NCBI GenBank assembly: GCA_029288315.1
Contig: JARIHL010000068.1
Span: 1 to 55,615 of the forward strand
DNA from: Candidatus Saccharimonadota bacterium
GTDB taxonomy: Bacteria > Patescibacteriota > Saccharimonadia > Saccharimonadales > EFPC-124
Length of the DNA: 55,615 nucleotides
Direction of reading: 5' to 3'
Made by a program: the position numbers and the translations under genes. Shown here in pieces: positions 9,554 to 49,683 of this stretch. Each line of letters opens with the position of its first letter. Within the stretch, counting starts at the first letter, position 1. The notes below the pieces were generated by a model. It was not told where the DNA came from, made no database searches, and saw nothing but the letters and a program-made list of their open reading frames with translations.

Positions 9554-9600
9554 GGTTGCTTCATTCAGGAAGCGTCGAGCCTCTTTCAGTAATTACACCC

Positions 9601-15098: not shown

Positions 15099-15106
15099 CG
15101 GCCCTT

Positions 15107-24815: not shown

Positions 24816-24819
24816 TGAT

Positions 24820-25740
24820 TTATTGACATGCCAAGGATGTGCGGAGGTTTTGGAGGTTTTCCCGCTGGACACTGAGGTAGTTTTTGCCTTGTTTTTGATC
24901 TGCATCACTTAATCCTTCAATCGGGTCGAATACCAATGTTTTTGCACCTGTCTCGGAAGCAATCGTATCAGCCAGCCGTGGACTAACGAGGCTTTCAAAG
25001 AACACGTAGTTAATGCCTTTATCCTTTACCAACTGACTTAACTCGGCTAGTTTGGCGGCACTTGGTTCTTCTTCCGGGCTTAATCCGGCGATAGACGCTA
25101 TATCAAGATTATACCGTTTACCCAGGTAAGAAAAGGCGTCGTGAGAACTAATAACCGTGCGGAGTTTACACTGACTGAGACCACTGCGGAAATCATCGTC
25201 AAGTTTAGCAAGTTGCGCCTTATAGTCACTAGCGTTCTTGGCATAGAAGTCTTGGTTTGCAGGGTCGGCCTTGCTAAAGCCGTCGCGGATATTGTCTACA
25301 ATTTTTTGAGCTAGTACAGGGTCGAGCCAGAAGTGCGGGTCTTGCACTTTCTCGGCAGGATTATCTTCGGCTTCCGCACTTAATAGGTCAATGCCGTCGC
25401 TTGCCTTAACGGGGGTATTTTTGTAGTCATGGAGGAATCCGCTTACCCACGGTTCCATGTAGCCGCCGTTATAAACGAACACTGGGGCTTTCTGAGCATC
25501 GGCTAATGCTTTTGCGGATGGTTCGTAATCATGTGGCTCGCTGCCTGCAGGTGTCATATTACTCACCAACACCTTGTCCTTGCCGACATTCTTTGCAAAG
25601 TCATATAGCGGATAATATGAGGCTACGACGCGTAACTTATCGTTACTGCTACTGCCTGTACTGTTGTATTTGGTGGCATATACCACGCCCGCTACTACAA
25701 CGAGTAACAGCACGAGGCTTGCCAAGATTTTCTTAGTCAT
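24820..25740 (-). CDS. znuA: metal ABC transporter substrate-binding protein (TroA/ZnuA family)
   Basis: Signal/lipobox-like N-terminus. Motifs: GSEPHDYEPS and DPHFWLDP (metal-ligand histidines), plus SHDAFSYL. Confidence 0.85.
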   Translation of the reverse strand: MTKKILASLVLLLVVVAGVVYATKYNSTGSSSNDKLRVVASYYPLYDFAKNVGKDKVLVSNMTPAGSEPHDYEPSAKALADAQKAPVFVYNGGYMEPWVSGFLHDYKNTPVKASDGIDLLSAEAEDNPAEKVQDPHFWLDPVLAQKIVDNIRDGFSKADPANQDFYAKNASDYKAQLAKLDDDFRSGLSQCKLRTVISSHDAFSYLGKRYNLDIASIAGLSPEEEPSAAKLAELSQLVKDKGINYVFFESLVSPRLADTIASETGAKTLVFDPIEGLSDADQKQGKNYLSVQRENLQNLRTSLACQ

Positions 25741-27074: not shown

Positions 27075-28403
27075 TCACTTTGTTGAACAACGAACAGCTC
27101 TGACGAGTGGTAATTCCGCCCAACTAGTCATGTAGGCGGGGCTGCGTTGTTCACGTTTACTGTGCCAGGCATTGCGGTCAATGTGCTCGCTTGCGTGACG
27201 CACCAGCCTCGTGTTAAATCGTTTATTAATTGCATCAACAGATCGCATAAGAGCGCTCTGACGCTCAAGACGTTGAGGGTTAGTTTCAAAGAGCGACACC
27301 TGCACAGCTTGGGCCGATTTCAGATCAACTAGTATAACTCCTCCCTTTTTATAACTAAGATCAGGATCATAAATGGCTTGAAGCCCTTTGAGTGCCGCTT
27401 CAATAATTACTCCTGTATCGGCGCTTGGCTGCATTAGACGAATTACTACTGAGGTGCTCTGATATTGCTCGAATCGTCTGGCTGGCCGTAAAAAGATCAT
27501 CACTGCCTCTGTCAATTCTTGCTGAGAACGCAGTTTAGCGCTAGCCTGAGCAGCAAAGGTGGCAATTGCCCCCTCTAATTCATAATAATTACGCATATTG
27601 TGCCCAAAAGAACGTGTACGGGCAATAGATTTTTGGGGCTCACGATCTGTGGCAAGCCTAAACCATACTTCGCCCTTGAGTTCTCTAACAGTTTGTACAC
27701 CTCTGATGCCCATCTGAGCCTGAGCCCAGGCATCACTTACCTGCGCCAGATCATAGGCGGTTGCGATACCTCTCTGGCGAAGTTTTGGAGCTGTTCGCCA
27801 GCCAATCCCCCAGATGTCGCTAACTGATAACCACTTTAGTAATCGTTCCCTATCCATCTCAGTTTGAGCATGGTAAGCGCCCTCAGTTTCAGGTAATTGC
27901 TTTGCATATTCAGCCGCAGCTTTCGCCAACGTTTTGGTTGACGCCACCCCTATTGAGACGGGGATGCCCGTCCACTGAAATATGCACTGACGTAAGGCTC
28001 GGGCCCACCCAGTGTAATCAGAAAGGCGCAGTGAGGAAATTTCTAAAAATGACTCGTCAACAGAGTAGACCTCAACATAAGGAGCTGCAGCCTGTAATAT
28101 TTTAACGACACGCTGCGAAAAGTCGCCATACAGGGGAAAGTTCCCCGAAAACAGCGTAACTTTATGAGCTTCTAATACATCTCTTACCTTAAACAGAGGT
28201 ATGCCCATTGGTACACCGAGAAGTTTGACTTCGTTGCTACGAGCTACAATACATCCGTCATTATTACTGAGTACTGCAACCGGTTTATTCCAGAGGTCAG
28301 GACGAAAAACCCGCTCACAACTAACAAAGAAGTTATTGCAGTCTACTAATGCAAACACTGCACCCCTAGAATCACACACAATCGTATGTCCATTTTGCTT
28401 CAT
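27075..28403 (-). CDS. umuC: Y-family DNA polymerase (Pol V catalytic subunit-like)
   Basis: N-terminus FALVDCNNFFVSCERVFRPDLWNKPVAVLSNNDGCIVARS and SVDESFL are hallmark UmuC/DinB motifs. 442 aa. Confidence 0.9.
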   Translation of the reverse strand: MKQNGHTIVCDSRGAVFALVDCNNFFVSCERVFRPDLWNKPVAVLSNNDGCIVARSNEVKLLGVPMGIPLFKVRDVLEAHKVTLFSGNFPLYGDFSQRVVKILQAAAPYVEVYSVDESFLEISSLRLSDYTGWARALRQCIFQWTGIPVSIGVASTKTLAKAAAEYAKQLPETEGAYHAQTEMDRERLLKWLSVSDIWGIGWRTAPKLRQRGIATAYDLAQVSDAWAQAQMGIRGVQTVRELKGEVWFRLATDREPQKSIARTRSFGHNMRNYYELEGAIATFAAQASAKLRSQQELTEAVMIFLRPARRFEQYQSTSVVIRLMQPSADTGVIIEAALKGLQAIYDPDLSYKKGGVILVDLKSAQAVQVSLFETNPQRLERQSALMRSVDAINKRFNTRLVRHASEHIDRNAWHSKREQRSPAYMTSWAELPLVRAVRCSTK

Positions 28404-29353: not shown

Positions 29354-29507
29354 AATTCTTATAGCATAGCACCGCTTGACAAAAGTTAATTGTAGCCATA
29401 GCTAGCTATAGAGGTTAGGAGCTGGACCAAAATAACCATAATCTCATTGACATGTTGTCATGTATGTTACACTATACTTAAAGAAGTACTGTAAGGAGGT
29501 TTCAGAG

Positions 29508-30890
29508 GTGCAGAAGTTGTCGATTTTTATTAATTATGTGCGATTTGTTCAGAGCAGTAAGTTTTTGATGGCGAGCGCAGTAGTGGCAGGAATAAGTTTG
29601 TTTGTAATTACAGGAGTATTGCGACCTCAGTCTGTGGCAGCTGCTCTGCCACGAGATTGTGATGCAAATTCTATTATCAACTGTGGCGCAGTCACGAAAG
29701 AAGAATTTGTGCAGAAATACAATCAAAACCAACCTGGCGACCTCAAAGCCGTATATGAACACTTTGGTTTAAGCCAAAGCGAAATTGAGCGCTTTCAGCA
29801 AACTGCCAAAATGGGGACCGTCTATAAAGATGGCCGAGTAGTCGTTGACGGTAAGGTGGTAGGCACTCATGCCACCAGTATTGGCCGTCACAATAAGCCT
29901 TCCTCGACTCCTTTAAACATTGCCGGTAAAACCTACTATACTCGTACTAATCAGACAGCTTTTCAATCTGATGCTATCCAGGCGCATGTGATGATGAATG
30001 GTGATCAAGCAGAGTTTATTGCGCTCACCTCTTGCGGTAATCCTGTTACTGTTACCCATCCAGTTCAGCCAACTTATCGTTGTGACATGCTTAATCGTGA
30101 ACAGATTGATCGCGATACTTATAAATTTAGTACTAAAGTGACGGCGAAAGATGGTGCCAAGCTTACCAAAGTGGTGTACGAGTTTGGTGATGGCCAAAAA
30201 GTTGAAAAAACTAACCCAACAGAGGTAGTAACTCACACGTATCAAAAAACTGGCGATTTTACCGCCAAAGTGACAGCTTACTTCGAGGTGAACGGCAAAA
30301 CGCAAACTCATACCACCGCTGAATGCACAAAACCAGTCGAAATTAAGCCTGAAGCTGAAAAACCAACCTATAAGTGCACCTCTCTGACCGCTCGGCAGAT
30401 TACACGTAATAAGTATGAATTTACAGCTAACGCCACTGTAACTGGTGATGCCCACCTAAAAGACGCTAAATTTGACTTTGACGATGGGCAAACCGCTGAA
30501 GGCATTATCCCAACAGAGAGCAATAAGGTAGTTGTAGAACATGAATACGCAAAAGAAGACTCTTATACCATTGTTGCTACCCTGAACTTTACCGTTGCCA
30601 ACGGCGTCAAAAGTGACAAATGCGAGGTAAGGATTACCGTTTCACCAGAAACGTGCCCTATTAACCCATCTGTTTCAAAAAATAGCCCCGAGTGTGAACC
30701 ATGCCCACATAACAAGGATCTATCGAAAAACTCTCCTGAATGTAAAGCTCCAGAAACTCCTAAGAATTTGCCGAGCACTGGCCCAGCCGAAATGATCAGT
30801 GGTGCCCTTGGTTTTGGCAGTATCATGACCGCTGGTAGTTATTATCTGCGCAGTCGGCGTGATCTGTTAGCGGTTATCTTTAAACGCTAA
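29508..30890 (+). CDS. LPSTG-anchored surface protein with three PKD/Ig-like repeats
   Basis: GTG start 8 nt after AAGGAGG (an alternative ATG lies further in). It has a signal peptide. A Y(K/R)C-led repeat of about 95 aa occurs three times (YRCDMLNREQI..., YKCTSLTARQI...). The C-terminus is NLPSTGP plus a hydrophobic helix plus RSRRDLL, which is a sortase sorting signal. Confidence 0.8.
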   Translation: MQKLSIFINYVRFVQSSKFLMASAVVAGISLFVITGVLRPQSVAAALPRDCDANSIINCGAVTKEEFVQKYNQNQPGDLKAVYEHFGLSQSEIERFQQTAKMGTVYKDGRVVVDGKVVGTHATSIGRHNKPSSTPLNIAGKTYYTRTNQTAFQSDAIQAHVMMNGDQAEFIALTSCGNPVTVTHPVQPTYRCDMLNREQIDRDTYKFSTKVTAKDGAKLTKVVYEFGDGQKVEKTNPTEVVTHTYQKTGDFTAKVTAYFEVNGKTQTHTTAECTKPVEIKPEAEKPTYKCTSLTARQITRNKYEFTANATVTGDAHLKDAKFDFDDGQTAEGIIPTESNKVVVEHEYAKEDSYTIVATLNFTVANGVKSDKCEVRITVSPETCPINPSVSKNSPECEPCPHNKDLSKNSPECKAPETPKNLPSTGPAEMISGALGFGSIMTAGSYYLRSRRDLLAVIFKR

Positions 30891-31123: not shown

Positions 31124-31688
31124 ACCTACTATGATATAACTATTGACAATTTTTGATAATAATGATATATTTAGTCCTGTCATCGTTTTGCGGCATGTGA
31201 GGTGGAGATCTCTAGCCCAGAAGATGGGTACCATAACATATAATGTATTTGCCTGAATATCGGCTCGTTCGAGATCAGGCTTTTCTTATACAAGGTACCT
31301 TTGTCTTTAGCGGTTCCGCGAGATGAGAAGGGCACATTAACAAGTCGAATCATTACAGTTCATTTAGCTACTTAACCAGTGTAGCGATGCGTTCTTTCGA
31401 AAGGCATCGCCGCAATCCTCGCCTTCCTGAGAGGGCGCTTCGCTGCACTGCAATAACAGTAGCAGCTGGCTACCAATGGCCTTCACAGGCCGTGTTTAGT
31501 CAGTTAGATATAGCATCTGCAAGCTGCTTTAGCTTGATGTGTCGCATTTGGCGTTTTGCCGGCTTCTTTATTATATAAAGCCGTCAGCACGCCAAATGTG
31601 TACTGTCTCGCGAGCAGCGCACATCAGCCTCCGACGTGGAGGCATTTGGCACTGTCAAAAGTACCGAAGACTCCACGAAGGAGATATC

Positions 31689-32708
31689 GTGACCACCGTA
31701 ACCAACAACCCCCAGCCCACCACTGACACTCAGGCACTGCGCGACCTCGAGGCGGCTCTGGGCCGTATCGTCAGTCAGCAAACGTCTGGCATGCAGAGCA
31801 AGATCGATCAGGTCACTGCTGGACAGGCCGACCTGACCGGTGTTCGCCAGGCCCTCGAGGCTCTCGACCCGATCGTGTCCCGTCACACGGACCAGATCGG
31901 CGACCTGAACAGTCGGCTGGGTACCATCGCCAGCCTCCTCCAGACCGCTGGCACCACGCTGCTGCAGCAGGCGCAAAACCTGCCCAGCGGTAACCTGGAC
32001 TCTAGCGCGCTCACCGCGAGCCGCCAGCAGCTTCAGGAGGTCGCCCAGCAGCTTCAGGAGGTCGCGGCCACCGCCGCATCCCGCCTGGAGCGGATCGAGA
32101 CGGCGCTGGGAATGGACCCGGACACCGGGCGCTCCCGCGTTCTCGACGACCACGGTTGGCGGCTTCACCATGTCAGCAACGCGCTGGACATGGATGCAAC
32201 TGGCCAGTCTGGTCACGTCAACAAGATCAACGCTCTGCTCGGTCTCGACCGTCCCGACGGTCAGCCCGACATCATCAAAGAGCTGACCGCTGGACAGGAG
32301 GCCATTGCAACAGCAGTCGCTGGAGTCAACTCCGCGCTGCTCATGCAGCCGGATGGTCGCGCGGACCGCATTGAGCGGATCGAAAGCCGGGTCGCCGCCC
32401 TGGAGAACCAGGGAGGCGGGCTCGGTAGGTCGCTACTGATCGGCGGAGCCGTCGGTCTGGTAACGTGGCTGTTCGTCGCCGTCGTCTTTGCCACCCCTGG
32501 ATGGGTGGATATCGTGATCGGTCTTACGACCTTCCTGGCCGTGACTGGTGTTGCGATGTTCCTTGGTGGCGGTAACAGCCGTCGTCCGGCTCGGCCTCGC
32601 CACACACCGCGGCGAGTTGTCCCGACACGGACCCCAGCGCCGGCAAACCAGCGAGGTAACGGTCAGAACCCTGCCACACCGGCCAACCCGCCGGCAAACC
32701 AGGCCTGA
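31689..32708 (+). CDS. coiled-coil membrane protein with a Pro/Arg-rich tail (high-GC, actinobacterial style)
   Basis: GTG at 31689, 5 nt after GAAGGAG. About 250 aa of heptad-like coiled coil include the tandem QQLQEVAQQLQEVA. Two or three TM helices follow (LLIGGAVGLVTWLFVAVVF, IVIGLTTFLAVTGVAMFLGG), then RRPARPRHTPRRVVPTRTPAPANQ. Confidence 0.65.
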   Translation: MTTVTNNPQPTTDTQALRDLEAALGRIVSQQTSGMQSKIDQVTAGQADLTGVRQALEALDPIVSRHTDQIGDLNSRLGTIASLLQTAGTTLLQQAQNLPSGNLDSSALTASRQQLQEVAQQLQEVAATAASRLERIETALGMDPDTGRSRVLDDHGWRLHHVSNALDMDATGQSGHVNKINALLGLDRPDGQPDIIKELTAGQEAIATAVAGVNSALLMQPDGRADRIERIESRVAALENQGGGLGRSLLIGGAVGLVTWLFVAVVFATPGWVDIVIGLTTFLAVTGVAMFLGGGNSRRPARPRHTPRRVVPTRTPAPANQRGNGQNPATPANPPANQA

Positions 32709-32714
32709 GTAATT

Positions 32715-32750
32715 GGCCCAGCCAGAGTGATTTTCTACTCTGGCTGGGCC
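32715..32750 (+). terminator. intercistronic hairpin
   Basis: Perfect 14-bp stem ggcccagccagagt / actctggctgggcc between the two island genes. Confidence 0.5.
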
Positions 32751-32775
32751 ATCCCCACACTTCAAGGAGAAGTAA

Positions 32776-33816
32776 ATGCCAAACAGACGCAGACGCGCAG
32801 GCGGACTAGTGTTGGCTAGCAGTGGGGTGCTCCTGACCCTGCTGTTTGCCCTGGTCCTTCTCGGTGTCGTTCCCTCACCCATTCCGGGCGTCGGGCCGGC
32901 ACCGGCACAAGCAGCTCAGACGTGCATCAACGAGGTGCACGTTCATTACTACGATCACAACAAGAACCACCCTGGCGATTTCGGCGCACCAGTCACCACG
33001 ACCGATGCCACCGAAGCCACGGAAATCGAACGGCAAACCCGGTGTGAAGATCCATACATCACGGCCAGTCACATGGCTGAAAAAGGGTGGATCACCAATA
33101 CCGATTCGGCCATCCAGGCTGAAGCTGAACGATACCAACTTGATCGAGTCGCCTGGCAACAGTCACTCGATCGCTTAGATCGATGGGAAGAAGGAGCTAC
33201 TGCTACCATCGAAGATGCGCCGTCTTCATACTGGACGTACGCGATGCGGGCTGGTGCCGATCGTACTTCGGTGTCAGTTTACCAAACGCATGTTGCGCAT
33301 GGCTCAGGTAAGGTTCTGGTCTATCGGCGTGACGGCGTGACCGTTATGCACCGGTTAGACTGCTTGTTCCAGCCGGTCAGCGTCCAGCAACTTCCCGAGC
33401 AAGTACCTCCAATCCGAGAGGTGCCCAAGGGACAAGGTGGCGAACAGCCTCCGGGCTCACCGCCGCCGAGCAGTTCGGTTCCGCCGCCACCCGGTACGGG
33501 TGACTGCAAGCCCAACTGCCCGACCACGACCGTCCCTCCGCCGCCGAGTGATGATTGTCATGACCGTGGAGACTGCAAGTCGTCCAATCCGGACGACTAT
33601 GTCTACCCTGATGGCAAACAGAAGGTGGATGCACCTGGCGCAGCCGATCCGGCTCCGCTAGTAGTGGAAACCCAACGGCATGAGCCGGAGCCTGCGCCAG
33701 TCATCACACCTGGTAACACAACCGACGACACTCCTGTCGACACCGGTAGTGACACCAACCACGGAACCGTTCCAACGGATCCGGGGCAAGGATGCACCAA
33801 CCCCGACTTCTGCTGA
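32776..33816 (+). CDS. secreted Cys-containing protein with a Pro-rich C-terminal half (high-GC)
   Basis: RRRR-containing signal peptide MPNRRRRAGGLVLASSGVLLTLLFALVLLGVV ... AQA. GGAGAAG lies 4 nt upstream of the ATG. It has PPPSSSVPPPPGTGDCKPNCPTTTVPPPPSDDC linkers. No family recognised. Confidence 0.65.
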   Translation: MPNRRRRAGGLVLASSGVLLTLLFALVLLGVVPSPIPGVGPAPAQAAQTCINEVHVHYYDHNKNHPGDFGAPVTTTDATEATEIERQTRCEDPYITASHMAEKGWITNTDSAIQAEAERYQLDRVAWQQSLDRLDRWEEGATATIEDAPSSYWTYAMRAGADRTSVSVYQTHVAHGSGKVLVYRRDGVTVMHRLDCLFQPVSVQQLPEQVPPIREVPKGQGGEQPPGSPPPSSSVPPPPGTGDCKPNCPTTTVPPPPSDDCHDRGDCKSSNPDDYVYPDGKQKVDAPGAADPAPLVVETQRHEPEPAPVITPGNTTDDTPVDTGSDTNHGTVPTDPGQGCTNPDFC

Positions 33817-33867
33817 TCCAGCAGAAGTCGGGCGGGGCCTGCCGGGCAATCATGCCCGGCAGGCCCC
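33803..33867 (+). terminator. two tandem GC-rich hairpins ending the island operon
   Basis: The 13-bp stem ccgacttctgctg / cagcagaagtcgg spans the stop codon. It is followed by the 14-bp stem ggggcctgccgggc / gcccggcaggcccc. Confidence 0.65.
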
Positions 33868-34081
33868 AGAGGCCCTATGCTATATCTATCACTCCGAGAG
33901 GGTGTACTAATTGTCGAGCCTTACAGCTCCAAGACGTACACTCCTCTCGAGAAAAACCTTATACATGATGTGACCTGTAATGATTCGACTTAAAGTGCCT
34001 GAGGAACGTTAACAATTTGGACCAAAGAGATTTGCAATTTAATCAAGTTTACTATTTAATTACTAATACTAAGGAGACTAT

Positions 34082-36016
34082 ATGAAGAAGCTACTTGAAA
34101 AGCTTCGTCGCGCACCCAAGCAGGTGGCGTTGACAGCACTTGCTGTTGCCGCCATTGTGACCCCCGCCATTGCCATGGCTTGGGGCCCAGATCGTGCAAC
34201 CTTTACGATCGCTAACCCTGCTCCGTACGTGACGTTTAACTCGATCACCGACAACCCTGCACACGGTGACGAACGCAATTTTATGCAGGTAAAGCCGACT
34301 GGCGCTCCTAATTCTGCTTACAGCGAGAAAGTGAACGTCGAAGCTGGCAAAGAGTATGACGTTTTTGTCTACTATCACAACAACGCAAAAACAAGCCTTA
34401 ACGCCAGCGGTGTTGGTATTGCTCAAGGGGCGAAAGTCCGTGCGCAAATTCCTGCCGTTGTCGAAGGTGATAAAAAGGCCGTGAGTTATATTGAAGCTGA
34501 CAACGCCAATCCTAAAAGTGTTTGGGACGATGTTACTTTTGCCAGCGCAACCAAACTGAACCTTGACTATGTACCTGGCTCAGCCACCATTCACAGCAAG
34601 GGTAAAGTAAACGGTAAAACACTACCTGACAGTATTGTCGCTGGTGGTGCAGCCCTTGGTTATGACGACCTTAACGGTGTATTGCCTGGCTGTGAGCAGT
34701 TTTCTGGCTACGTGGTTTTCCGCGTCAAAGCCACTGCTGAAAAGCCCGACTTCACCATCAAAAAGGAAGTCCGCGAAGCTGATAAAAACGCCACTTGGGC
34801 CGAGAACGTTAAAGTCGCTCCCGGTACCAAGGTTAATTACCGTCTTACCTTTACCAACACTGGTAAAACCGATCTCAAGAATGTTCAATTGAAAGATCAA
34901 CTGCCTGCTGGTATGTCAATCGTATCTGGCAGCGTAAAGATCATGAATGCTTCACATCCAAATGGCGCGCCAATTACAAATGGTGACCAGCTGGTTGCTA
35001 ATGGTGTCAACATTGGTTCTTACACCCCTGGTTCTAACGCGCTTGTCGTGTTTGACGCAACAGTTGCCGCCGAGAAAGATTTGCCCTGTGGTAAGAAAAC
35101 TTTCCGTAACGTCGCCAGCGCTAAGCCAGAAGGCCAGAATCCAAAAGAGGACGATGCCAATGTTGAAACTGAAAAGAAGTGTGAAGAGACAAAACAGCCA
35201 ATCTATAAGTGTACTGGCTTAAATGTCGAGACAATCTCGCCTACCCAGTTTAAATTTACTGGTGAAAAGCAGGTTGAGAACGCTGAATTCGTGAAATTCA
35301 TCTACGTTATCCGTGATGAAGCTGGCAAAGAAATTGCCCGCAACGAGCAAGGTGGTTTTACCATCGACAAAGTTGGTAAGTACACTGCTGAAGCAATCTT
35401 GGTGGTTAAAGTTGACGGCCAAGAGAAGCAAGCTACTGCTGCTGAATGTAAGAAACCTTTCGAAGTGAAAGAACAACCCAAGCAGCCAGTATACCGCTGT
35501 GACTCATTAACCGTTAAACCAGTTCGCATTGATGGCAAAGACAGCCGTGACCAGTTTGAGTTTACGGTTCAGCCGTACTCTGAAGGTAACGTAAAAGTCA
35601 AAGAATACAGCTTTGACTACGATGACGGTCAAACTCAGATCGTCGGTGCCGACCAAAAAACAGTGAAGCATACCTATCAGAAAGCTGGTGACTACACTGC
35701 CAAGGTAGCAATTACCTTCGAAGTTGATAGCAAAACCGTCCCTGGTGTTACCGGTGACAAATGTAAGGTTAGCCTGAATGTTAAACCTGTACCTCCTGCA
35801 GAATGTAAGCCCGGCATTCCGATGAATGACGCGCGCTGTGAGGAAAAGCCAGGTCAACCAGGCCAGCCTGAACAACCAAAAACACCTGAGTCATTGCCTT
35901 CAACTGGCCCAGAAGCCATCCTCGGCAGTCTCTTTGGTTCAAGCGCGCTTGGTCTTGGTGTGCACACGTGGCTGAACAGCCGCCGTGCCCTCCGCAGCGT
36001 CGTAAACAAGAAGTAA
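34082..36016 (+). CDS. LPSTG-anchored surface protein (DUF11/Cna-B-like domain plus PKD/Ig-like repeats)
   Basis: TAAGGAG upstream and a signal peptide. TFTNTGKTDLKNVQLKDQLPAGMSIVSGSVKI is DUF11-type. Two Y(K/R)C-led repeats are paralogous to those of the 29508 gene (for example FDYDDGQTQ...HTYQKAGDYTAKV vs FGDGQKV...HTYQKTGDFTAKV). The C-terminus is SLPSTGP plus a helix plus NSRRALR. Confidence 0.85.
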   Translation: MKKLLEKLRRAPKQVALTALAVAAIVTPAIAMAWGPDRATFTIANPAPYVTFNSITDNPAHGDERNFMQVKPTGAPNSAYSEKVNVEAGKEYDVFVYYHNNAKTSLNASGVGIAQGAKVRAQIPAVVEGDKKAVSYIEADNANPKSVWDDVTFASATKLNLDYVPGSATIHSKGKVNGKTLPDSIVAGGAALGYDDLNGVLPGCEQFSGYVVFRVKATAEKPDFTIKKEVREADKNATWAENVKVAPGTKVNYRLTFTNTGKTDLKNVQLKDQLPAGMSIVSGSVKIMNASHPNGAPITNGDQLVANGVNIGSYTPGSNALVVFDATVAAEKDLPCGKKTFRNVASAKPEGQNPKEDDANVETEKKCEETKQPIYKCTGLNVETISPTQFKFTGEKQVENAEFVKFIYVIRDEAGKEIARNEQGGFTIDKVGKYTAEAILVVKVDGQEKQATAAECKKPFEVKEQPKQPVYRCDSLTVKPVRIDGKDSRDQFEFTVQPYSEGNVKVKEYSFDYDDGQTQIVGADQKTVKHTYQKAGDYTAKVAITFEVDSKTVPGVTGDKCKVSLNVKPVPPAECKPGIPMNDARCEEKPGQPGQPEQPKTPESLPSTGPEAILGSLFGSSALGLGVHTWLNSRRALRSVVNKK

Positions 36017-36563: not shown

Positions 36564-36788
36564 ATGAGTAAACGAAATCGCAAGCATCGCCACAAATCCT
36601 ACCAAGGCGAAGACGCTAAAACACCCAGCCAAGGCCCTACCGTTACTCGCTATAAAGCTATAGTACGCTCACCACTTGGAGAATGGTGGCATGAACATAA
36701 ACGCAGTACCAAAATAATTGGCGGTATTACTGGCGGCGTTGTTATTGCTGCCTGGCTTTTGTTCGAGTTGTTTCGACTCGTTTTTTAA
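36564..36788 (+). CDS. small basic single-TM protein
   Basis: 74 aa: a Lys/Arg/His-rich N-terminus (MSKRNRKHRHK) and a C-terminal helix IIGGITGGVVIAAWLLFELF. Its 3' end overlaps the convergent kinase gene. Confidence 0.45.
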   Translation: MSKRNRKHRHKSYQGEDAKTPSQGPTVTRYKAIVRSPLGEWWHEHKRSTKIIGGITGGVVIAAWLLFELFRLVF

Positions 36789-38937
36789 ACTTGCTGGTGA
36801 GTGGCAATTTGAAGCCAAAAACACTTCCTTTATGTTCTTGGCTTTCGAAAATCATTTCACCTCCGTGCGCCGCAATAACCATTTTAGCCATAAATAGTCC
36901 GATGCCAGTGCCATCCGGCCGGACCTGCCGTGCATTGCTAGCCCGAAAAAATTTTGTAAATAGACTGGCTTGCTCTTTCGGGGGCACACCAATACCATTA
37001 TCTTCTACGGTCAATATAACTTGCTTATCATTTTCAGAAAGCGTTATCAAAATGTCGCCACCGCTATTTGAATAGAAAATTGCATTATCAATAAAATTCA
37101 TAATAACCTGCCGAATCTTGGTTTCATCAAGCTGCATTACGAGGAAATCAACAGGAACGTGCGTTCGTATAGTTATGCCCCTTGCTTTTGCCGCAGCCGT
37201 TAATTGGCTCACTTCTTCATGTATCAAATCTGGCAAACTCACAGTACTTGGTTCGAGCAAAAACTTGCCAGTTTTTAGCCGTGAGATATTTAAAAAGTCA
37301 GCTATCATATAGACCATGCGCTGAGCACTTGCATAAGCTTCTTGCAGCAGTTTCCTCTGATCGGTATTTAAAGCCCCTGCATCTCCCTCAAGCACCATCG
37401 ATACATAACCTTTAACACTTGTCAGCGGCGTGCGCAACTGATGAGAGGCCATGCTAATGAATTCGTCTTTGGCCTCATCAAGCGCACGGAGTTTTTTGTT
37501 GCTCTCGCGCAACTGTTTTGTTGCTTCATCCACCTCTGCTTGCAATGTCTCATTAAAATGCGCAATCTCTTCAAATCGAAGCGCGTTTTGCACCGCCACC
37601 GCTAATTCATCGCTTGCGATGCGGATGAGATTGATGTCTTGATTAGTATAAATATTACCGCTAGACTTGTAGCCAAATACTATATAACCAATAAGCTCTT
37701 TAGAGGTCTCAATCCGGGCAATAATCCCAATATTTTCTTGGTGCATTAATCGATAAAGATGCGATGTCTGAGCAGCTAAGTCATCTTGCACAATGATAAT
37801 ATCATTGTAGTGGGCAATTTCGGTGAGGAGTTTTCCTGTATCTTGATTTTTTGGAAGACGACCAACTGAAAAATGCCGCTCATTAACTTGTTTAGAGCTA
37901 ATAAGATAAATCGCAATATAATCAGCTTTGATAGATTTTTGCAGAATAGCAAGAGCATCGTGCGCAAGTTTTTGTACAGCATTTGTACTTACTAAAATAT
38001 TGGCTAGTCTATCAAGAACTTGCTGAGTTTCATACATATCTTGGTAAAAGATAGCTTTACTAATTTTATCAAAGAAATTCTTCATAGGTCCGAACGTCGT
38101 GGCTAAAACTAAAGCGAGAAAAATATAAACCATCTCTCGAGTTAATGAAGTCTGCGGTTCACCTTGGAGTAAGCCTGCAGCCAAAGCGAATGCTAATAAG
38201 CTATATACAGCAGCGATAGTCACCAACGATAAAACATAGGCGACAAACCGCGCCACCACTAAACGAATATCAAAAAGTCTGTGTCTAACAATGGCATACG
38301 CTGTGCCGCCTACTAATAAAAGCGAGAAGACTGGTCCAAACTGGACATAACTGTAATTACCCAACATTGGTAACACCAGGTTGAGGATAACTCCTAAAAA
38401 GGCACTGCTACTAAAACTGGCGATAATTATTCGAATTCTAGCACGACTAGCCCCCCGATGAGTTCCCACTGCTCTCCATAGAGCAATAACACCCGCAAGC
38501 AAGTAGGTAATAATAATCAGACCATACAGTATTAAAGAAAAGGCGTTAGTAATAATGGTGTTATCCACTATTGTAACTGCAACTACACCAGGTATTGCTG
38601 AAAAGATGGCCGTGATACACCCCATGCCGATTAGTACAGATTGCTGCCAGGATTTAATTTTTGCATCGCTTAACTTTAGGCAAAATAATAGAAAAAATAG
38701 GACTATAAAAGCTGCTGCAGCGTAGCTTGCGAGTGCAATACTATATTTTAGCTCGCCGCTAACTTGTTGATATAGAACATTAGTAATGCTCCAGATAGTT
38801 ATTGAAAACGCTTGACCGAAAAATAAACGGTTCAGAATACTCCTGGAATTGCGTAATAACACGATCAAACCAACACCAAGGTTTGCAAGAGATGCAATAA
38901 TCAAGAGGGAGTGTGCCCAAAACATATGCGTTATCAA
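36742..38937 (-). CDS. sensor histidine kinase (about 8 TM N-terminal domain, GAF-like, HisKA, HATPase_c)
   Basis: About 290 aa of TM helices and a central GAF-like region. Motifs: H-box SMASHQLRTPLTSV, N-box FIDNAIFYS, DNGIGVP and GTGIGL. It starts 4 nt after the stop of the acyltransferase gene. Confidence 0.9.
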   Translation of the reverse strand: MITHMFWAHSLLIIASLANLGVGLIVLLRNSRSILNRLFFGQAFSITIWSITNVLYQQVSGELKYSIALASYAAAAFIVLFFLLFCLKLSDAKIKSWQQSVLIGMGCITAIFSAIPGVVAVTIVDNTIITNAFSLILYGLIIITYLLAGVIALWRAVGTHRGASRARIRIIIASFSSSAFLGVILNLVLPMLGNYSYVQFGPVFSLLLVGGTAYAIVRHRLFDIRLVVARFVAYVLSLVTIAAVYSLLAFALAAGLLQGEPQTSLTREMVYIFLALVLATTFGPMKNFFDKISKAIFYQDMYETQQVLDRLANILVSTNAVQKLAHDALAILQKSIKADYIAIYLISSKQVNERHFSVGRLPKNQDTGKLLTEIAHYNDIIIVQDDLAAQTSHLYRLMHQENIGIIARIETSKELIGYIVFGYKSSGNIYTNQDINLIRIASDELAVAVQNALRFEEIAHFNETLQAEVDEATKQLRESNKKLRALDEAKDEFISMASHQLRTPLTSVKGYVSMVLEGDAGALNTDQRKLLQEAYASAQRMVYMIADFLNISRLKTGKFLLEPSTVSLPDLIHEEVSQLTAAAKARGITIRTHVPVDFLVMQLDETKIRQVIMNFIDNAIFYSNSGGDILITLSENDKQVILTVEDNGIGVPPKEQASLFTKFFRASNARQVRPDGTGIGLFMAKMVIAAHGGEMIFESQEHKGSVFGFKLPLTSKFKKRVETTRTKARQQ

Positions 38938-38940
38938 GCA

Positions 38941-39786
38941 CTATAAAGCATACGAGTTTTCAAGTCCACTCTCTACCCATTTAGTCGTTCTTTGGTGGAC
39001 TGGATTAGTACTTTGTTGAAGTGTTGTGAGAGCCTCAGGGGTATTAACATAACAAAAATGCGATTCATCATTATCATGAACGTCAATTCTGCCACTGACC
39101 AATACATGCGTTTGAATCCCCAATTTAGTTAGCAAGTCTTTCATTTTAGTAGTAGTTGTGAAGAACCAATAAGTTGATTCATCGGCCTCAGTATGGTTTG
39201 TTTCAGAGATACCGGCCCCCATTAGATACATCATACCTTCTATAATCTCGCGGCTGCTTACCGATCCATCTAATGGATGGACTAGCCGTGTTTGATCCCA
39301 AAGTCTGCCCTCTTCGGCTGCTGTTTGAAGGATCTGTAAGCTATCTGCTTGTTCTTTTTGTACAGTTATTTTCATTGATTCGTTAAGCATAGACCAACTC
39401 AGCGAATGCTCTACTGCATCAACAGGAGTTAAGCGCATCCCACAAGTCATCTTTACCTCAGCGTCAAGCCCTGCTTTTTCTTGTGCGAGTTTTATAAAAT
39501 AACGAGTTTGTGCATCTATATTATCGTATTCGTCTGTATCGTCTTCTCTGGAATTGAACCATCGCATGCCAATAACGAATTCTCTACGTAATTGTAAATA
39601 ATTAGCATAGAGTAGTTGCGCTAGTTGATTAGAAGCAACCTCATCGCGTTCAAATTTATACACCCCCAAAGTGGGGGTGTATCTTTCAGCGTTTTGCCTA
39701 GAAAGCTCATAATTAAGTGCTTCTGATGCCGATGCAATATGAGGCGGCGACTGCTCGTTATAACCTTCAATTAATTTTTCTGACAT
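38941..39786 (-). CDS. LuxI-family autoinducer synthase-like / FeeM-type N-acyltransferase (GNAT fold)
   Basis: LRREFVIGMRWFNSREDDTDEYDNID aligns with the TraI block RLRATVFGGRLEWDVSIIAGEERDQYDN (R..F...W......[E/D]xD.YD). TCGMRLTP aligns with GCVRLLP. LWDQTRL aligns with VESSRF. FFTTTTKMKDLLTKLG aligns with IVTATDLRFERILKRAG. Confidence 0.55.
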   Translation of the reverse strand: MSEKLIEGYNEQSPPHIASASEALNYELSRQNAERYTPTLGVYKFERDEVASNQLAQLLYANYLQLRREFVIGMRWFNSREDDTDEYDNIDAQTRYFIKLAQEKAGLDAEVKMTCGMRLTPVDAVEHSLSWSMLNESMKITVQKEQADSLQILQTAAEEGRLWDQTRLVHPLDGSVSSREIIEGMMYLMGAGISETNHTEADESTYWFFTTTTKMKDLLTKLGIQTHVLVSGRIDVHDNDESHFCYVNTPEALTTLQQSTNPVHQRTTKWVESGLENSYAL

Positions 39787-39957
39787 AATTATTGGCGTGG
39801 TTATGTTTGTATTTTTATAATAGCATATCTAATAGAAAAATTCAATACAAATATACTCTTTTTAGGTACATTGCAAATTTTTTACCTTAACCAGAACCAC
39901 CCTCTATGAGCTTGCCAAGTATGATATGGTAGAAACAGTAACTGTAGAGGTAAATGT

Positions 39958-40329
39958 ATGCCAGTCAAGATCGCCATTATTGAAGATGATCCGACGATTT
40001 CCCAGATGTATCGGATGAAGTTTGAGGCCGAGGGCTTTGACGTACAGACAGCAAGTAATGGCAGGCTAGGCGTCGCGTTGGTGGAAAAGATGCGACCAGA
40101 TGTTTTGCTTCTTGACCTGCGCATGCCAGAAATGGATGGCGCTGAAGCATTGGCAGAAATCCGCAAAGAAAGCTGGGGCAAACATATACCTGTACTTGTT
40201 TTAACGAATGTTGGTGAAGAAGAAGCACCCAAAACACTCAAATCGCTGGATGTCTATGACTATATTGTGAAGGCTGATCTCACACCGCGCCAAGTGGTTG
40301 AGAAAGTTAAAGAAGCCCTGACGGCTTAG
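39958..40329 (+). CDS. single-domain response regulator (receiver only)
   Basis: IAIIEDD, LLLDLRMPEMDG (phospho-acceptor Asp), VLVLTN, and the conserved-Lys region KADL. 123 aa with no output domain. It is divergent from the acyltransferase-kinase operon. Confidence 0.9.
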   Translation: MPVKIAIIEDDPTISQMYRMKFEAEGFDVQTASNGRLGVALVEKMRPDVLLLDLRMPEMDGAEALAEIRKESWGKHIPVLVLTNVGEEEAPKTLKSLDVYDYIVKADLTPRQVVEKVKEALTA

Positions 40330-41436: not shown

Positions 41437-42210
41437 TCAGCTCGCGATACGGCGGCAACGTTCAGCGCTGTTTGCTAACTGCTGTTGCACGTTGAGCTTC
41501 GCTTGGCCAGAAAGTGGAGTGTCGGCTTGACCCACGATTTCAGCCAGCTCACGCAGCATTGGTTCATATTTTTTTGCAAGGGCAGTTGCTTTCAGCGGAT
41601 TTTTGGCGAGAATAAGTTCAAGGTCAGCAGTATTATCAAGTACATCACACGCTTTAATAATGCGTGCATCAGGATGACTGGCGAGTTTTTGCAGCACATT
41701 GGCGCGGTACAATTCATGGCGTTCCCCGCGAGGCATTGCCGGATCAAGCGGAGGGTTGGTCAAGATATTCACTAAACGAGCCACGCGCTCATTAAACATA
41801 GACTGCAAAATATCCAGTGCCATAGCATGGAGCATCTCTAGTTCGTAGGTTGGTGAATCGAAACTTTCTTGGTTTTCATCTTGAATCAATTTATTATGGT
41901 GATTTTCCACTGTATCGTGAAGAATAGCTGCAACAATTACATCTATGTCAGCAAATTCAGAATCTTGTAAGATGCGTAAAGTTACTCTTAGGACGTGGTT
42001 TATATAAGGCTCGCGAACTCGTTGTTCACCATCATGCAAAAAAGTAGCAAGCTCTAATGCGCCATCAATGAAAGCGCTATCTTCACCAGAGAAACGCTTT
42101 GCTTCAAACGCAAACTGCTCGCGCAGTCCCTGCTCTCCCCATCTTTCAGTAATTTCTTCGAGCGAAAGCAAATATAGCTGCTCTTGCCTCAGGGCACTGC
42201 GTTCAACCAT
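41437..42210 (-). CDS. HD-domain protein resembling the SpoT/Mesh1-type (p)ppGpp hydrolase domain
   Basis: YINHVLRVTLRIL ... VAAILHDTVEN (H..HD..E[D/N] arrangement as in RelA/SpoT hydrolase domains). 257 aa with no synthetase domain. Confidence 0.55.
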   Translation of the reverse strand: MVERSALRQEQLYLLSLEEITERWGEQGLREQFAFEAKRFSGEDSAFIDGALELATFLHDGEQRVREPYINHVLRVTLRILQDSEFADIDVIVAAILHDTVENHHNKLIQDENQESFDSPTYELEMLHAMALDILQSMFNERVARLVNILTNPPLDPAMPRGERHELYRANVLQKLASHPDARIIKACDVLDNTADLELILAKNPLKATALAKKYEPMLRELAEIVGQADTPLSGQAKLNVQQQLANSAERCRRIAS

Positions 42211-46889: not shown

Positions 46890-48329
46890 ATGAATTATTC
46901 AAGTACCGCTTTTCACGAACAATATCCCACCTACGCCGATACTACTGAACTAGACAAGCTTCGAGCTATTGATTTTAAGCTTTTAGATGATACGAATGAA
47001 GTTTATTTAGACTACACAGGTGGCGGGCTGTATAGCACGTCCCAAGTAGCTGCTCATACAAAAATTCTACAAAATACCCTTTTTGGCAATCCACATTCTG
47101 ATAACCCTTCTTCAATTCGTGCAACAAAAATAATGGAGCAAGCACGTGCTGCTGTGCTAAGCTTTTTTGATGCTTCACCAGATGACTATTGCGTTATTTT
47201 TACTTCTAACGCTTCTGGCGCATTGCGCTTGGTCGGTGAAGCCTATCCTTTTAGGCTGACAGGTCAATTTTTGCAACTTATTGACAACCACAACTCTGTA
47301 AATGGTATTCGAGAATTTGCCCGGCAAGCTGGCTCATCAATTAGCCTTATTAAAAGTCAACGAGATGATCTTCAGGTTCGAACCGAAGATGTAATGACAG
47401 CTCTACGCAATCATCAAAAAGGTTCACGTCTCTTTGCCTATCCAGCGCAGTCCAACTTCAGTGGCGTGCAACATTCATTAGATTGGATCGCCTTGGCCCA
47501 AAGCGAGGGCTGGGATGTATTGCTTGATGCAGCCGCGTTTGTGCCGACTAACAAGCTTAGCTTTAGTCTCATAAAACCTGATTTCGTTTGCTTATCTTTT
47601 TACAAGATGTTTGGCTGGCCTACCGGTATTGGTTGCCTGATAGCTAAGAGGAGCTCCTTGCCAAAGTTGAAACGGCCTTGGTTCTCTGGCGGTACGGTAC
47701 AGGCTCTGAGCGTACAGGGAGACTGGCATATTATGGCCAATGAATATGAAGCATTTGAGGACGGTACAGTCAATTATTTAAATGCTCCTGCCATAACTCT
47801 TGGTCTTGATTACTTGCAAAAAATTGGTATAGAAACCATTCATACTCGCGTCATGTGTCTAACTGATTGGGTGCTGATGCAGCTAAAAACATTGAGACAT
47901 TCCAATGGAAGACCGCTTATAGAAATATATGGTCCGCTCACCACGCAAAACCGCGGTGCGGTCATCACCTTAAACTTTCTAACACCAGGAGGTCAGATTG
48001 TCGATGAACGCATTGTCAGCCGCGAGGCAAAAAAATACCGCATTTCTCTGCGCACGGGCTGTTTTTGTAACCCTGGCGCAGCAGAAATTGCTTTTAATTT
48101 GCCACCAGAAAAGCTGGCGGTCGGACGTAGTAATAGTAATGGTAATGGTAATGGTCAAAGCTTTGACCATTACCTGGCGCTTATGGAGTTGCAAAGCGGC
48201 AATGCGATCCGTATTTCATTTGGCTTGGCTAGCAACTTTAATGATGCGAAAGCTTTTTTGGAGTTTGCTCATACTTTTCGGGATACTCATTTTAGCACTC
48301 AAGATCTGCCGAAACGAGTTCATTGTTGA
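46890..48329 (+). CDS. class V PLP-dependent aminotransferase / molybdenum-cofactor-sulfurase-like desulfurase
   Basis: SFYKMFGWPTGIGCLI (PLP lysine context, as in the MOCOS N-terminal domain SFYKIFGFPTG), plus GNPHS and RTGCFCNPGA near the C-terminus. Confidence 0.7.
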   Translation: MNYSSTAFHEQYPTYADTTELDKLRAIDFKLLDDTNEVYLDYTGGGLYSTSQVAAHTKILQNTLFGNPHSDNPSSIRATKIMEQARAAVLSFFDASPDDYCVIFTSNASGALRLVGEAYPFRLTGQFLQLIDNHNSVNGIREFARQAGSSISLIKSQRDDLQVRTEDVMTALRNHQKGSRLFAYPAQSNFSGVQHSLDWIALAQSEGWDVLLDAAAFVPTNKLSFSLIKPDFVCLSFYKMFGWPTGIGCLIAKRSSLPKLKRPWFSGGTVQALSVQGDWHIMANEYEAFEDGTVNYLNAPAITLGLDYLQKIGIETIHTRVMCLTDWVLMQLKTLRHSNGRPLIEIYGPLTTQNRGAVITLNFLTPGGQIVDERIVSREAKKYRISLRTGCFCNPGAAEIAFNLPPEKLAVGRSNSNGNGNGQSFDHYLALMELQSGNAIRISFGLASNFNDAKAFLEFAHTFRDTHFSTQDLPKRVHC

Positions 48330-48591: not shown

Positions 48592-49683
48592 CTACAACTT
48601 TTCTAAAATATTCTTAAGTGTTGTCAAGAATTGATCGTTCTCAACCGGCAAGCCAACTGTTACACGCAGCCACTGTTCCATACCATACCCATCGAGCGGC
48701 CGCACAATGACACCGTGGCACAGCAACTTCTCATAGATAAGCTGAGCGGACGCCACTTTAAAGGTAATGAAGTTACCATAAGCTGGTAAATAATCTATAG
48801 CTAGACGCTTTAAACCAGCCATTATTTGAGCCTTTCCGTCAAGGTTCGCTTGGTAGCTCTTTGTTACAAAATCTTTGTCGGACAGAGCTGCTTGAGCTGC
48901 GACTAAGCCAATTGTACTAACGTTGAATGGCTGCCGAACCCGATTTAAATAGTCCCCTATTTCCGGAGAAGTCATGCCATAGCCAATACGTAATCCGGCA
49001 AGACCATAGATTTTAGAAAATGTTCGTACGAGGATGAGGTTTTGAAATACATCTAACCACTTGACTGTATCGACGCGATTTTTTGGCGTAAGGTAATCGT
49101 AATATGCTTCGTCAAGCACTACGATAATCTCAGGTGGCAGCTGTGTTAAAAAATCCTCTACTTGAGCATAAGGCAGAAAAGTACCAGTTGGATTATTGGG
49201 GTTGGCAATCCAGATCACTTTTGTAGCCGATGTCACCGCCTGAAGCATAGCAGATAAATCATGCCCGTACTGCCGGGCGGGCACAATACTATTACGTGCA
49301 CCGATTGCTTGGGTAGCTAATTGATACACAATAAAACTATATTGGGCAGAAATCGCTTCATCACCTGGCCCCAGGTAAGCACGAGCAACTAAATCCAGCA
49401 CATCATTTGAGCCATTACCCAAGACAAGTCTACCGGGCGCAAGATTATGGAGCACCGCCAGTTGATGTAAGAGATCATATTGGTCAGGATAGCGGTGAGC
49501 GCTTGTAGCCATCTGTTGTATGGCTTGGAGCGCTTTTGGGCTTGGGCCAAAGGGATTTTCATTAGAAGCCAGCTTTACGACTGCTTCTGCCGCGATACCA
49601 TATCGTTTTGTAATATAGTCTATCGGTAAACCAGGTTGATATGGATGAATAGTTTTAATTTGTAGGCGTGGTTTGCTGGTCAT
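48592..49683 (-). CDS. hisC: histidinol-phosphate/aromatic aminotransferase
   Basis: LASNENPFGPSP, NPNNPTG and FSKIYGLAGLRIGY (PLP lysine). It overlaps pheA by 4 nt (ATGA). Confidence 0.85.
   Translation of the reverse strand: MTSKPRLQIKTIHPYQPGLPIDYITKRYGIAAEAVVKLASNENPFGPSPKALQAIQQMATSAHRYPDQYDLLHQLAVLHNLAPGRLVLGNGSNDVLDLVARAYLGPGDEAISAQYSFIVYQLATQAIGARNSIVPARQYGHDLSAMLQAVTSATKVIWIANPNNPTGTFLPYAQVEDFLTQLPPEIIVVLDEAYYDYLTPKNRVDTVKWLDVFQNLILVRTFSKIYGLAGLRIGYGMTSPEIGDYLNRVRQPFNVSTIGLVAAQAALSDKDFVTKSYQANLDGKAQIMAGLKRLAIDYLPAYGNFITFKVASAQLIYEKLLCHGVIVRPLDGYGMEQWLRVTVGLPVENDQFLTTLKNILEKL

Follow-up and report, generated by a model that had tools for sequence, protein, structure and literature searches.

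The 55,615-nucleotide contig JARIHL010000068.1 of a Candidatus Saccharimonadota bacterium (assembly GCA_029288315.1), referred to here in its full length as the window, carries a gene, X, that resembles N-acyl signal synthases at great evolutionary distance. X is followed on the same strand by a multi-pass membrane sensor histidine kinase, and a stand-alone response regulator (RR) is transcribed divergently from it. A first-pass annotation had described this trio as a LuxI/FeeM-like N-acyltransferase co-transcribed with a membrane-bound kinase, and the three genes, their spacing and three conserved sequence blocks in X were all recovered at the positions it gave (Table 1). Between the X stop codon (38943-38941) and the start of the kinase there are 3 nt if translation begins at the TTG codon and 15 nt if it begins at the ATG codon, the latter being the start in a public gene call, and no terminator-like site was found between the two genes. 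In the intergenic region between X and RR, hexamers that look like promoter elements precede X (TTGAAT-17-TATTAT with TG, minus strand, 39845-39817) and RR (plus strand, 39792-39821), both recognised by consensus match only, and there is an imperfect inverted repeat at 39807-39845. The genome had been thought to be low in GC; the window is 46.5% GC overall, with 40.7% in X and 40.9% in the kinase, values that are mid rather than low.

Searched alone, X has no match in Pfam, NCBIfam or PDB sequences, and none to PF00765 (Autoind_synth) at E ≤ 1. Just three close homologs were found among 5.8 billion clustered proteins. When a profile of four X sequences was compared with 1.84 billion representative sequences, 210 clusters (50% identity) were retrieved at E ≤ 1e-3, 78 of them at E ≤ 1e-30. 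Based on this yield, we conclude that X belongs to a real and sizeable family that is unannotated. A profile search of a further protein database added almost no members, and no second copy of X was found in the window. Ten longer members (319-469 aa) were checked for fusions and have no extra Pfam domain. A homolog of 469 aa in locus L008 (P0027) has a 265-residue N-terminal extension with no known domain; the end of that contig carries, on the other strand, a short fragment similar to the N-terminal part of the kinase, and a rearrangement or misassembly is possible there.

Curated models recognise the family faintly. Autoind_synth gives sub-threshold matches to 19 of 148 family members (best E 3.4e-4), FeeM (PF21926) to 16 (best E 2.9e-4) and Acetyltransf_5 (PF13444) to 10, X itself being matched by neither of the latter two. 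The NCBIfam model of TraI-type acyl-homoserine-lactone (AHL) synthases matches 3 of 26 members, and only marginally (E at least 0.036). X thus fails the models proposed for checking in the first-pass annotation (Autoind_synth, FeeM and other GNAT models), and those of NCBIfam as well. By any curated model, X is not a member of the LuxI or FeeM family.

Profile-based comparisons give a more specific result. Against PDB sequences, the X-family profile matches AHL synthases only (TofI 2e-6, RpaI 4e-4, EsaI 5e-3), and the FeeM sequence is not matched at E ≤ 10. We aligned the family with hhalign to a reference set of LasI, TofI, BjaI and RpaI. The LasI sequence was verified against 1ro5, to which it is identical except for a small loop replacement in the crystallised protein, and the other three segments were taken from PDB-based output. 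The alignment has a probability of 97.2% (E 4e-11) and extends over 165 columns, the whole LuxI domain. In it, LasI residues R23, F27, W33, D44, D47, R70, E101, S103 and R104 map onto R67, F70, W76, D85, D88, R118, D164, T166 and R167 of X, and each of these nine LuxI signature positions is conserved in 141-148 of the 148 family members (95-100%).

The signature falls into three blocks. The first reads L66-R67..F70.....W76......D83.D85.Y87-D88 in X, with R67 found in 147 of the 148 sequences, F or Y at position 70 in 141, W76 in 146, D85 and D88 in all and Y87 in 140. The second, C115-G-M-R118-L-T-P121, corresponds to AGMRMVPT in RpaI; R118 is present in 148/148 members and T120 in 141/148. 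The third, W163-D-Q-T166-R167-L-V169, corresponds to IWELSRF in LasI (confirmed against 1ro5), with D164 in 148 members, T166 in 145 and R167 in 147. Two conservative changes relative to LuxI are systematic in the family, E101 to D and S103 to T. In AHL synthases, R23, F27 and W33 form the putative S-adenosylmethionine (SAM) pocket, and the S103-R104 beta-bulge in strand beta4 sets these enzymes apart from other GNAT-fold proteins (Kozbial and Mushegian, PMC1282579). Altogether, twelve positions are at least 95% conserved in the 148 X-family sequences, which are otherwise 22-39% identical. They coincide with the active-site cluster of LuxI and thus speak for a catalytic site that has been conserved in X. 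Three further residues are specific to the family: W207, which is invariant, D238 (133/148) and C245 (126/148).

The predicted structure leads to the same assignment. Two AlphaFold (AF2) models of X, built with 4 and with 148 sequences, reach predicted local distance difference test (pLDDT) values of 75.7 and 89.4, respectively. For both models, the Foldseek matches in PDB at ranks 1-11 are AHL synthases, and LasI appears at rank 18 or 13. The best structural matches are MesI (5.4e-7) and TofI (1.4e-6), followed by EsaI, BjaI, RpaI and LasI, and TM-scores against AHL synthase structures are 0.55-0.69 when normalised by target. FeeM (2g0b) is placed below all AHL synthases at E 1e-3 to 3e-3, about 1000-fold weaker, and ordinary GNATs are lower still. 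Judged by profile homology and modelled fold, X is a remote homolog of the LuxI-type AHL synthases, with the LuxI/FeeM fold shared. The earlier label of X as LuxI/FeeM-like thus holds for remote homology and fold, but not for membership in any curated family. A GNAT toxin of the TacT/AtaT type was also considered and rejected; X has no antitoxin-like partner, and the fold search ranks ordinary GNATs well beneath the AHL synthases.

These results bear on a sceptical reading, in which X would be an ordinary or degenerate GNAT acting on some other substrate, such as a small-molecule or protein acetyltransferase, or would assist the kinase without any catalysis of its own, and its position beside the kinase would be synteny inherited within one lineage. 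That X passes no curated family model is in line with such a reading. The low rank of ordinary GNATs in the fold search and the twelve positions conserved across so diverse a family speak against it, and the LuxI signature residues, whose absence the first-pass annotation had regarded as fatal to its proposal, are near-invariant.

The kinase has the HisKA and HATPase_c domains of a classical sensor kinase, with the H-box SHQLRTPL, and it is not a hybrid kinase, as it lacks a receiver domain. A sensing region of about eight transmembrane (TM) helices and a GAF-like domain had been proposed for it. Hydropathy indicates about nine hydrophobic segments in residues 1-285; the GAF match is sub-threshold in the window (E 1.8e-3, 19.2 bits against a cut-off of 22.4) and is backed by the L006 ortholog, which passes GAF_3 (28.7 bits, cut-off 27). 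The window kinase has no HisKA_7TM (PF16927) match at E ≤ 1, and its membrane region aligns at 33-43% identity with those of its orthologs. It is 36-40% identical to the membrane regions of the L001, L009 and L010 orthologs, which pass HisKA_7TM with 53, 45 and 37 bits (cut-off 28.6). Because orthologs pass HisKA_7TM or GAF_3, we read the kinase as a probable, divergent HisKA_7TM domain, two TM segments, GAF, HisKA and HATPase_c. More than 100 full-length orthologs exist at 40-50% identity, and PF16927 is found in most of the 120 best. The named orthologs (43-46% identity) are mostly assigned by NCBI to Candidatus Saccharimonadales or the Patescibacteria group, and several orthologs are on contigs of 0.9-1.1 Mb. 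The window is thus very probably part of a Saccharibacteria (TM7) genome, and the suggestion of an episymbiotic organism is supported at the level of the taxon.

The regulator is receiver-only, as predicted, with a Response_reg (PF00072) match of 84 bits and no other domain. Its acidic pocket (E9-D10-D11), phospho-acceptor D53, T83 and K104 are present. With the HisKA histidine, the HATPase_c domain and the receiver phospho-acceptor aspartate all in place, the kinase and RR are a classical two-component system. The LuxR-type receptor domains Autoind_bind and GerE are absent from the approximately 45 open reading frames (ORFs) of the window scanned with Pfam; the partner of X is a histidine kinase. 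A second sensor kinase in the window (12285-14684, plus strand) contains PAS and CHASE3 domains. It is followed closely by an ORF of 127 aa (14887-15270), which has no Pfam match and is therefore not an obvious receiver.

Table 1 Coordinates of the X, kinase and receiver genes and of their parts in the window
Feature	Position	Strand	Description
Gene X	38941..39786	-	281 aa; residues 1-40 variable, low-confidence; predicted divergent LuxI/FeeM-superfamily N-acyltransferase, GNAT-like fold
X block 1	39523..39591	-	residues 66-88, LR..FV...W......D.D.YD; aligns to LasI R23/F27/W33/D44/D47
X block 2	39421..39444	-	residues 115-122, CGMRLTPV; R118 aligned with LasI R70
X block 3	39280..39303	-	residues 162-169, LWDQTRLV; D164/T166/R167 aligned with LasI E101/S103/R104
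Sensor histidine kinase	36742..38937	-	731 aa from TTG, or 727 aa from ATG 38925
Kinase membrane sensor region	38068..38925	-	about 9 hydrophobic helices; probable divergent HisKA_7TM and two further TM segments
Kinase GAF-like domain	37591..37974	-	residues 322-449
Kinase HisKA dimerisation/phospho-acceptor domain	37267..37473	-	PF00512, 62.8 bits
Kinase HATPase_c catalytic domain	36796..37128	-	PF02518, 92 bits
Divergent intergenic region X-RR	39787..39957		171 nt
Stand-alone receiver RR	39958..40329	+	123 aa; single-domain response regulator, divergent from X
Small membrane-anchored ORF	36564..36788	+	74 aa; convergent with kinase, overlaps kinase 3' end

The arrangement is conserved well beyond the window. 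Locus contexts were assembled from exact-protein look-ups, one metagenome scan and tblastn mapping. In all mid-GC loci (40-53% GC) with enough flanking sequence, RR is divergent from X and X is followed by the kinase; these are nine distinct loci, namely the window, L001, L002, L006/L007, L009, L010, L023, L024/L025 and L027. The spacer between X and the kinase ranges from -4 to 29 nt (L001, L002, L006, L009, L010, L023 and L027). The tight linkage of X to a multi-TM GAF kinase that had been proposed is thus found in every related mid-GC locus read, each time together with the receiver. FolD is encoded beside RR in the six loci whose flanks reach it (the window, L001, L002, L006, L023/L024 and L027), and wider synteny with a named Saccharimonadales assembly includes FolD, a small TM ORF, a PKD surface protein and DinB. 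The 74-aa ORF at the 3' end of the kinase gene, which is also called in public data, has no Pfam match; its N-terminus is basic, a TM helix lies at its C-terminus, and its sequence includes the motif TVTRY.A.VRSP.G.WW. The ORF is found at the equivalent position with 49-59% identity in L006, L023, L027 and L028 (tblastn), and this conserved syntenic neighbour may be associated with the module.

The genes of the trio have diverged to very different extents. X is only 27-42% identical between mid-GC loci. Across six loci, mean pairwise identity is 67.5% for RR and 56-62% for the kinase core, compared with 34.7% for X, 35.6% for the TM sensor of the kinase and 30-44% for its GAF domain; RR ranges from 62 to 77% across related loci. 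X and the kinase TM sensor therefore diverge much faster than the kinase core or RR, a pattern seen in diversifying signal/receptor pairs.

The generic-GNAT reading has some support in these loci, as all kinase-linked copies of X are from one lineage with the wider synteny described above. The X-kinase spacers nevertheless stay within -4 to 29 nt even though X is only about 35% identical between loci. A further locus can be cited on both sides. In L028 (GCA_035710125.1, Candidatus Saccharimonadales), the gene in the X position upstream of the orthologous kinase (9179-9940) is not detected by the X-family hidden Markov model (HMM) or by hhalign, and is thus not recognisably of the X family, but it has a full-length, sub-threshold FeeM match (E 0.005). 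The X slot may hold alternative, very divergent enzymes of the LuxI/FeeM fold. On balance, we consider it improbable that X is a generic GNAT or a non-catalytic partner.

We tentatively favour the reading that X makes an N-acyl signal sensed in the membrane by the kinase, although we put its probability at slightly less than even. X would transfer a fatty acyl chain from acyl-acyl carrier protein or acyl-CoA to an amino-acid-type amine; with SAM as the acceptor the product would be an acyl-homoserine lactone, and with a free amino acid it would be an N-acyl amino acid. The amphipathic product would partition into or cross the membrane and be bound by the membrane/GAF sensor of the kinase. Ligand occupancy would then alter the kinase/phosphatase activity that acts on the divergently encoded receiver, which, because it has no DNA-binding domain, would act through protein-protein contact or as a step in a phosphorelay. 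The sequences show the homology and fold of X, its conserved signature, an operon structure maintained in Saccharimonadales, and the domains of which the kinase and RR are composed; from these observations we infer the activity of X, the identity of its product, the sensing of that product by the kinase and the output.

Several points count against a signalling role. X and nearly all its relatives fall below the curated cut-offs of Autoind_synth, FeeM, Acetyltransf_5 and NCBIfam, and RR has neither an output domain nor a known target. The conserved blocks of X are largely common to N-acyl amino acid synthases and OlsB-type enzymes, and so do not fix the acceptor. Fatty-acid synthesis is reported to be generally absent from Saccharibacteria, which makes the supply of an acyl donor for X uncertain. 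In a mirror-tree analysis, X and kinase TM distances are positively correlated, but the correlation does not reach significance (15 pairs that are not independent; r 0.34, p 0.22). The homologs from high-GC contigs in L004 and L012, discussed below, have no sensor gene adjoining X, and in the literature we found no experimental work on LuxI-like/sensor-kinase systems of this sort. In Mycobacterium tuberculosis, TyzA, whose fold neighbours are FeeM and BjaI, makes N-acyl-Tyr/Phe from acyl-CoA (PMC10404671); fold alone thus does not predict the acceptor. Lastly, lipid-related genes are found within the module in some sister loci. A PlsC-type PF01553 acyltransferase lies between RR and X in L027 and L028, and an LPG_synthase_C gene lies at that site in L006 and beside FolD in L028.

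Such inserts support the main rival reading, in which the module serves membrane aminolipids. X would then be OlsB/GlsB-like and supply the membrane of the cell itself with a lyso-aminolipid or an N-acyl amino-acid lipid, which a PlsC-type O-acyltransferase would complete in some genomes. The 7TM-GAF kinase would monitor the membrane or envelope, or the lipid itself, in a homeostatic or stress circuit instead of cell-cell signalling. It is established that ornithine and glycine lipids are made in two steps, by an N-acyltransferase and a PlsC-type O-acyltransferase (OlsB/OlsA, GlsB/GlsA). The PF01553 genes belong to the PlsC/OlsA/HdtS type, and LPG_synthase_C is an aminoacyl-phosphatidylglycerol synthase domain. 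The weak Acetyltransf_5 and FeeM matches within the X family are also consistent with this reading, as is a Taylorbacteria cluster of LuxI-like, HdtS-like and kinase genes listed in Table S4 of PMC7567580. No PlsC-like or LPG-synthase gene is present, however, in the module of the window, L001, L002, L009, L010 or L024, or anywhere in the window (tblastn), and the kinase is the sole invariant partner of X. In the fold and profile matches, AHL synthases outscore FeeM by about three orders of magnitude, and the fast divergence of X and of the sensor domain is unusual for a housekeeping lipid enzyme. We regard the aminolipid explanation as rather unlikely, though it retains an appreciable share of the probability.

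With respect to the inserts themselves, the PlsC/HdtS-type acyltransferase (209 aa; 8483-9112 in L027 and 8481-9110 in L028) is in an operon with RR. The LPG_synthase_C genes, similar to the C-terminal part of MprF, are at 6836-7759 in L006 and 7156-8121 in L028. In L023, an ABC ATPase and an FtsX-type permease (3218-5415) lie between RR and X. None of these PlsC-like, LPG-synthase or ABC/FtsX inserts is found in the window.

X homologs are also present on contigs of 62-72% GC, in L004, which is labelled as a Nakamurella metagenome-assembled genome (MAG), and in L011-L022. A related-locus search of genome contigs returned one locus, that of the Nakamurella-labelled MAG. The high-GC homologs have no kinase or RR alongside. 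In one group of closely related high-GC contigs (L013-L021), the gene after X encodes a GGDEF protein whose N-terminal membrane domain is polytopic, with about 5-6 TM helices (for example, X at 5935-6684 and the GGDEF protein at 6867-7934 in L016). This adjacency is an independent second association of X with a polytopic-membrane signalling protein. A sensor module shared between the GGDEF protein and the kinase was considered and rejected, as the TM domains are not homologous (hhalign 0.2%).

The high-GC sequences are 33-39% identical to X of Saccharimonadales, equal to the similarity among Saccharimonadales sequences, and they are scattered over a neighbour-joining tree (no support values; crude composition proxy). 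This scatter hints at transfer of X between Saccharimonadales and high-GC bacteria. The kinase might mainly sense N-acyl compounds made by X homologs of an actinobacterial host, with the X of the episymbiont modifying, mimicking or jamming them. The high-GC contigs, including the Nakamurella-labelled MAG, the even similarity across the two groups, the scatter in the tree and a 2.4-kb high-GC island 5 kb from the module in the window are all compatible with this host-cue reading. Taxon labels are scarce on the high-GC contigs, however, and the one MAG label is possibly a binning error; the tree lacks support values, and no host link is known for this genome. We consider this explanation very improbable.

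A broader proposal joins these elements. X would define a family of lipid-signal synthases that diversifies fast and has passed back or forth between Saccharibacteria and high-GC bacteria of the actinobacterial, host type. In the episymbiont the enzyme would be hard-wired to the stand-alone receiver and the 7TM-GAF kinase, and in the high-GC bacteria it would act beside a membrane diguanylate cyclase. One class of N-acyl molecule would then give epibiont and host a private, strain-specific language or a host-recognition cue. We offer this proposal as a speculation with a small chance of being correct.

The high-GC island (31550-33950) has 57-69% GC, compared with 40-48% in its flanks, and looks like DNA recently imported from a high-GC organism. 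It contains ORFs at 31539-32708 and 32776-33816 (both plus strand), of which the second is proline-rich, with an N-terminal TM or signal segment and no Pfam match. GC at third codon positions is 0.59 in the 346-aa island ORF and 0.33-0.40 in neighbouring genes. Large surface proteins with DUF11 and PKD domains are encoded at 34082-36016 and 29460-30890 (both plus strand), the first ending in an LPSTG sortase-type signal; proteins with DUF11 and/or PKD domains also occur near the kinase gene in L023, L027 and L028. The window further encodes a Fic-domain protein (21225-22112), a ZnuABC-type metal uptake operon (23336-25740), a DinB/ImuB-type translesion polymerase (27075-28403) and an HD-domain protein with a weak, RelA/SpoT-hydrolase-like HD_4 match (41437-42210), all on the minus strand. 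A PheA-type chorismate mutase/prephenate dehydratase (49680-50753, minus strand) and two aminotransferases (48592-49683, minus strand; 46890-48329, plus strand) are amino-acid biosynthesis genes that would be unexpected in a strongly reduced episymbiont genome, and their presence indicates that this genome is not maximally reduced.

The pairing of a LuxI-like gene with a sensor kinase is not new to the Candidate Phyla Radiation (CPR), so the trio is not the undescribed circuit that it was first taken to be. Bernard et al. 2020 (mSystems, PMC7567580) searched 2,503 CPR genomes and obtained 36 LuxI-HMM hits, using PF00765, CATH or seed HMMs. Half of these hits (18/36), from eleven candidate phyla and including two Saccharibacteria genomes, adjoin sensory kinases, and the syntenies, usually on the same strand, were proposed as candidate complete quorum-sensing systems (PMC7567580). 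The Saccharibacteria hit of that study, OGL33891.1, reaches 38.5 bits with PF00765 and is two genes away from the kinase. The window follows the same pattern: its LuxI-like coding sequence adjoins a sensor kinase gene, and the genome is patescibacterial. X has no score at all on PF00765 and so probably represents a subfamily of greater divergence, missed in that survey; this distinction is drawn from scores and not from a comparison of sequences. The part of PMC7567580 available to us does not describe a divergent stand-alone receiver, the HisKA_7TM-GAF architecture, the asymmetry in rates or high-GC homologs. What is new here is a large and more divergent family missed by standard models, and a trio that includes the receiver and is conserved in the mid-GC loci read. 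The identification of the synthase and the sensor as the fast-evolving parts, and of high-GC homologs beside a membrane GGDEF protein, is also new.

Saccharibacteria are obligate epibionts with tiny genomes, and how they sense their partners and their own density is largely unknown. The module is a concrete candidate for such sensing, combining a synthase-like enzyme with a membrane kinase across the lineage, with fast-evolving signal and sensor parts. The X family of about 210 clusters has been missed by Pfam and NCBIfam, and its members are presumably annotated as hypothetical. If the signalling reading is correct, LuxI-fold chemistry would extend well beyond Proteobacteria and be read by non-LuxR receptors. 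If epibionts and hosts shared an N-acyl language, it would represent the first case in the CPR of a quorum or host-sensing signal that the cells make themselves, and two-component and c-di-GMP receptors would take the place of LuxR in reading a LuxI-fold enzyme. If X instead makes aminolipids, there would be a regulated aminolipid pathway in organisms thought to scavenge lipids.

Among known enzymes, X is closest to the LuxI-type AHL synthases (PF00765; LasI, TofI, EsaI, BjaI, RpaI and MesI), with which it shares a GNAT-like alpha/beta/alpha fold by prediction. It differs from them in a variable N-terminal extension of 40-60 residues and in a longer two-helix insert (approximately 129-158, with invariant S130 and M133) that replaces the PTTxPYML..FP.L segment of LuxI. 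X is paired with a histidine kinase, whereas LuxI-type enzymes are normally paired with a LuxR-type receptor, and X occurs in Saccharimonadales and high-GC bacteria, whereas LuxI-type enzymes are characteristic of Proteobacteria. FeeM and the N-acyl amino acid synthases have the superfamily fold in common with X, which is nearer to AHL synthases in both sequence and structure. TyzA (Rv2336) is, like X, an unannotated enzyme of the LuxI/FeeM fold, in a Gram-positive lineage, but ThiF or nitroreductase partners such as those of tyzBC are not found near X. OlsB/OlsA and GlsB/GlsA combine a LuxI/FeeM-related N-acyltransferase with a PlsC-type O-acyltransferase, and a PlsC-type gene adjoins the module in L027 and L028. 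In contrast, tblastn finds no PlsC-type gene in the window, and Acetyltransf_5 is matched weakly by few family members. We know of no OlsB/OlsA or GlsB/GlsA pathway that is co-operonic with a sensor kinase.

In gene organisation, the module resembles LuxM/LuxN, AinS/AinR, CqsA/CqsS and LqsA/LqsS/LqsR, in all of which a synthase gene adjoins that of a polytopic-membrane sensor kinase. X and the kinase have this organisation: the genes are adjacent and co-oriented, and the pairing is conserved in 9 Saccharimonadales-type loci. The LuxM, AinS, CqsA and LqsA synthases are not of the LuxI fold, whereas X is, by homology and model. LuxN and CqsS are of the hybrid type and include a receiver domain; the kinase described here has none, adds a GAF domain and has a TM domain that is probably of the HisKA_7TM type. 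Points of likeness are the nine TM helices reported for LuxN and the absence of a DNA-binding domain from LqsR, which is likewise a receiver protein. The kinases of these known pairs bind a hydrophobic autoinducer within the TM domain, and a comparable mode of sensing is proposed for the kinase encoded next to X.

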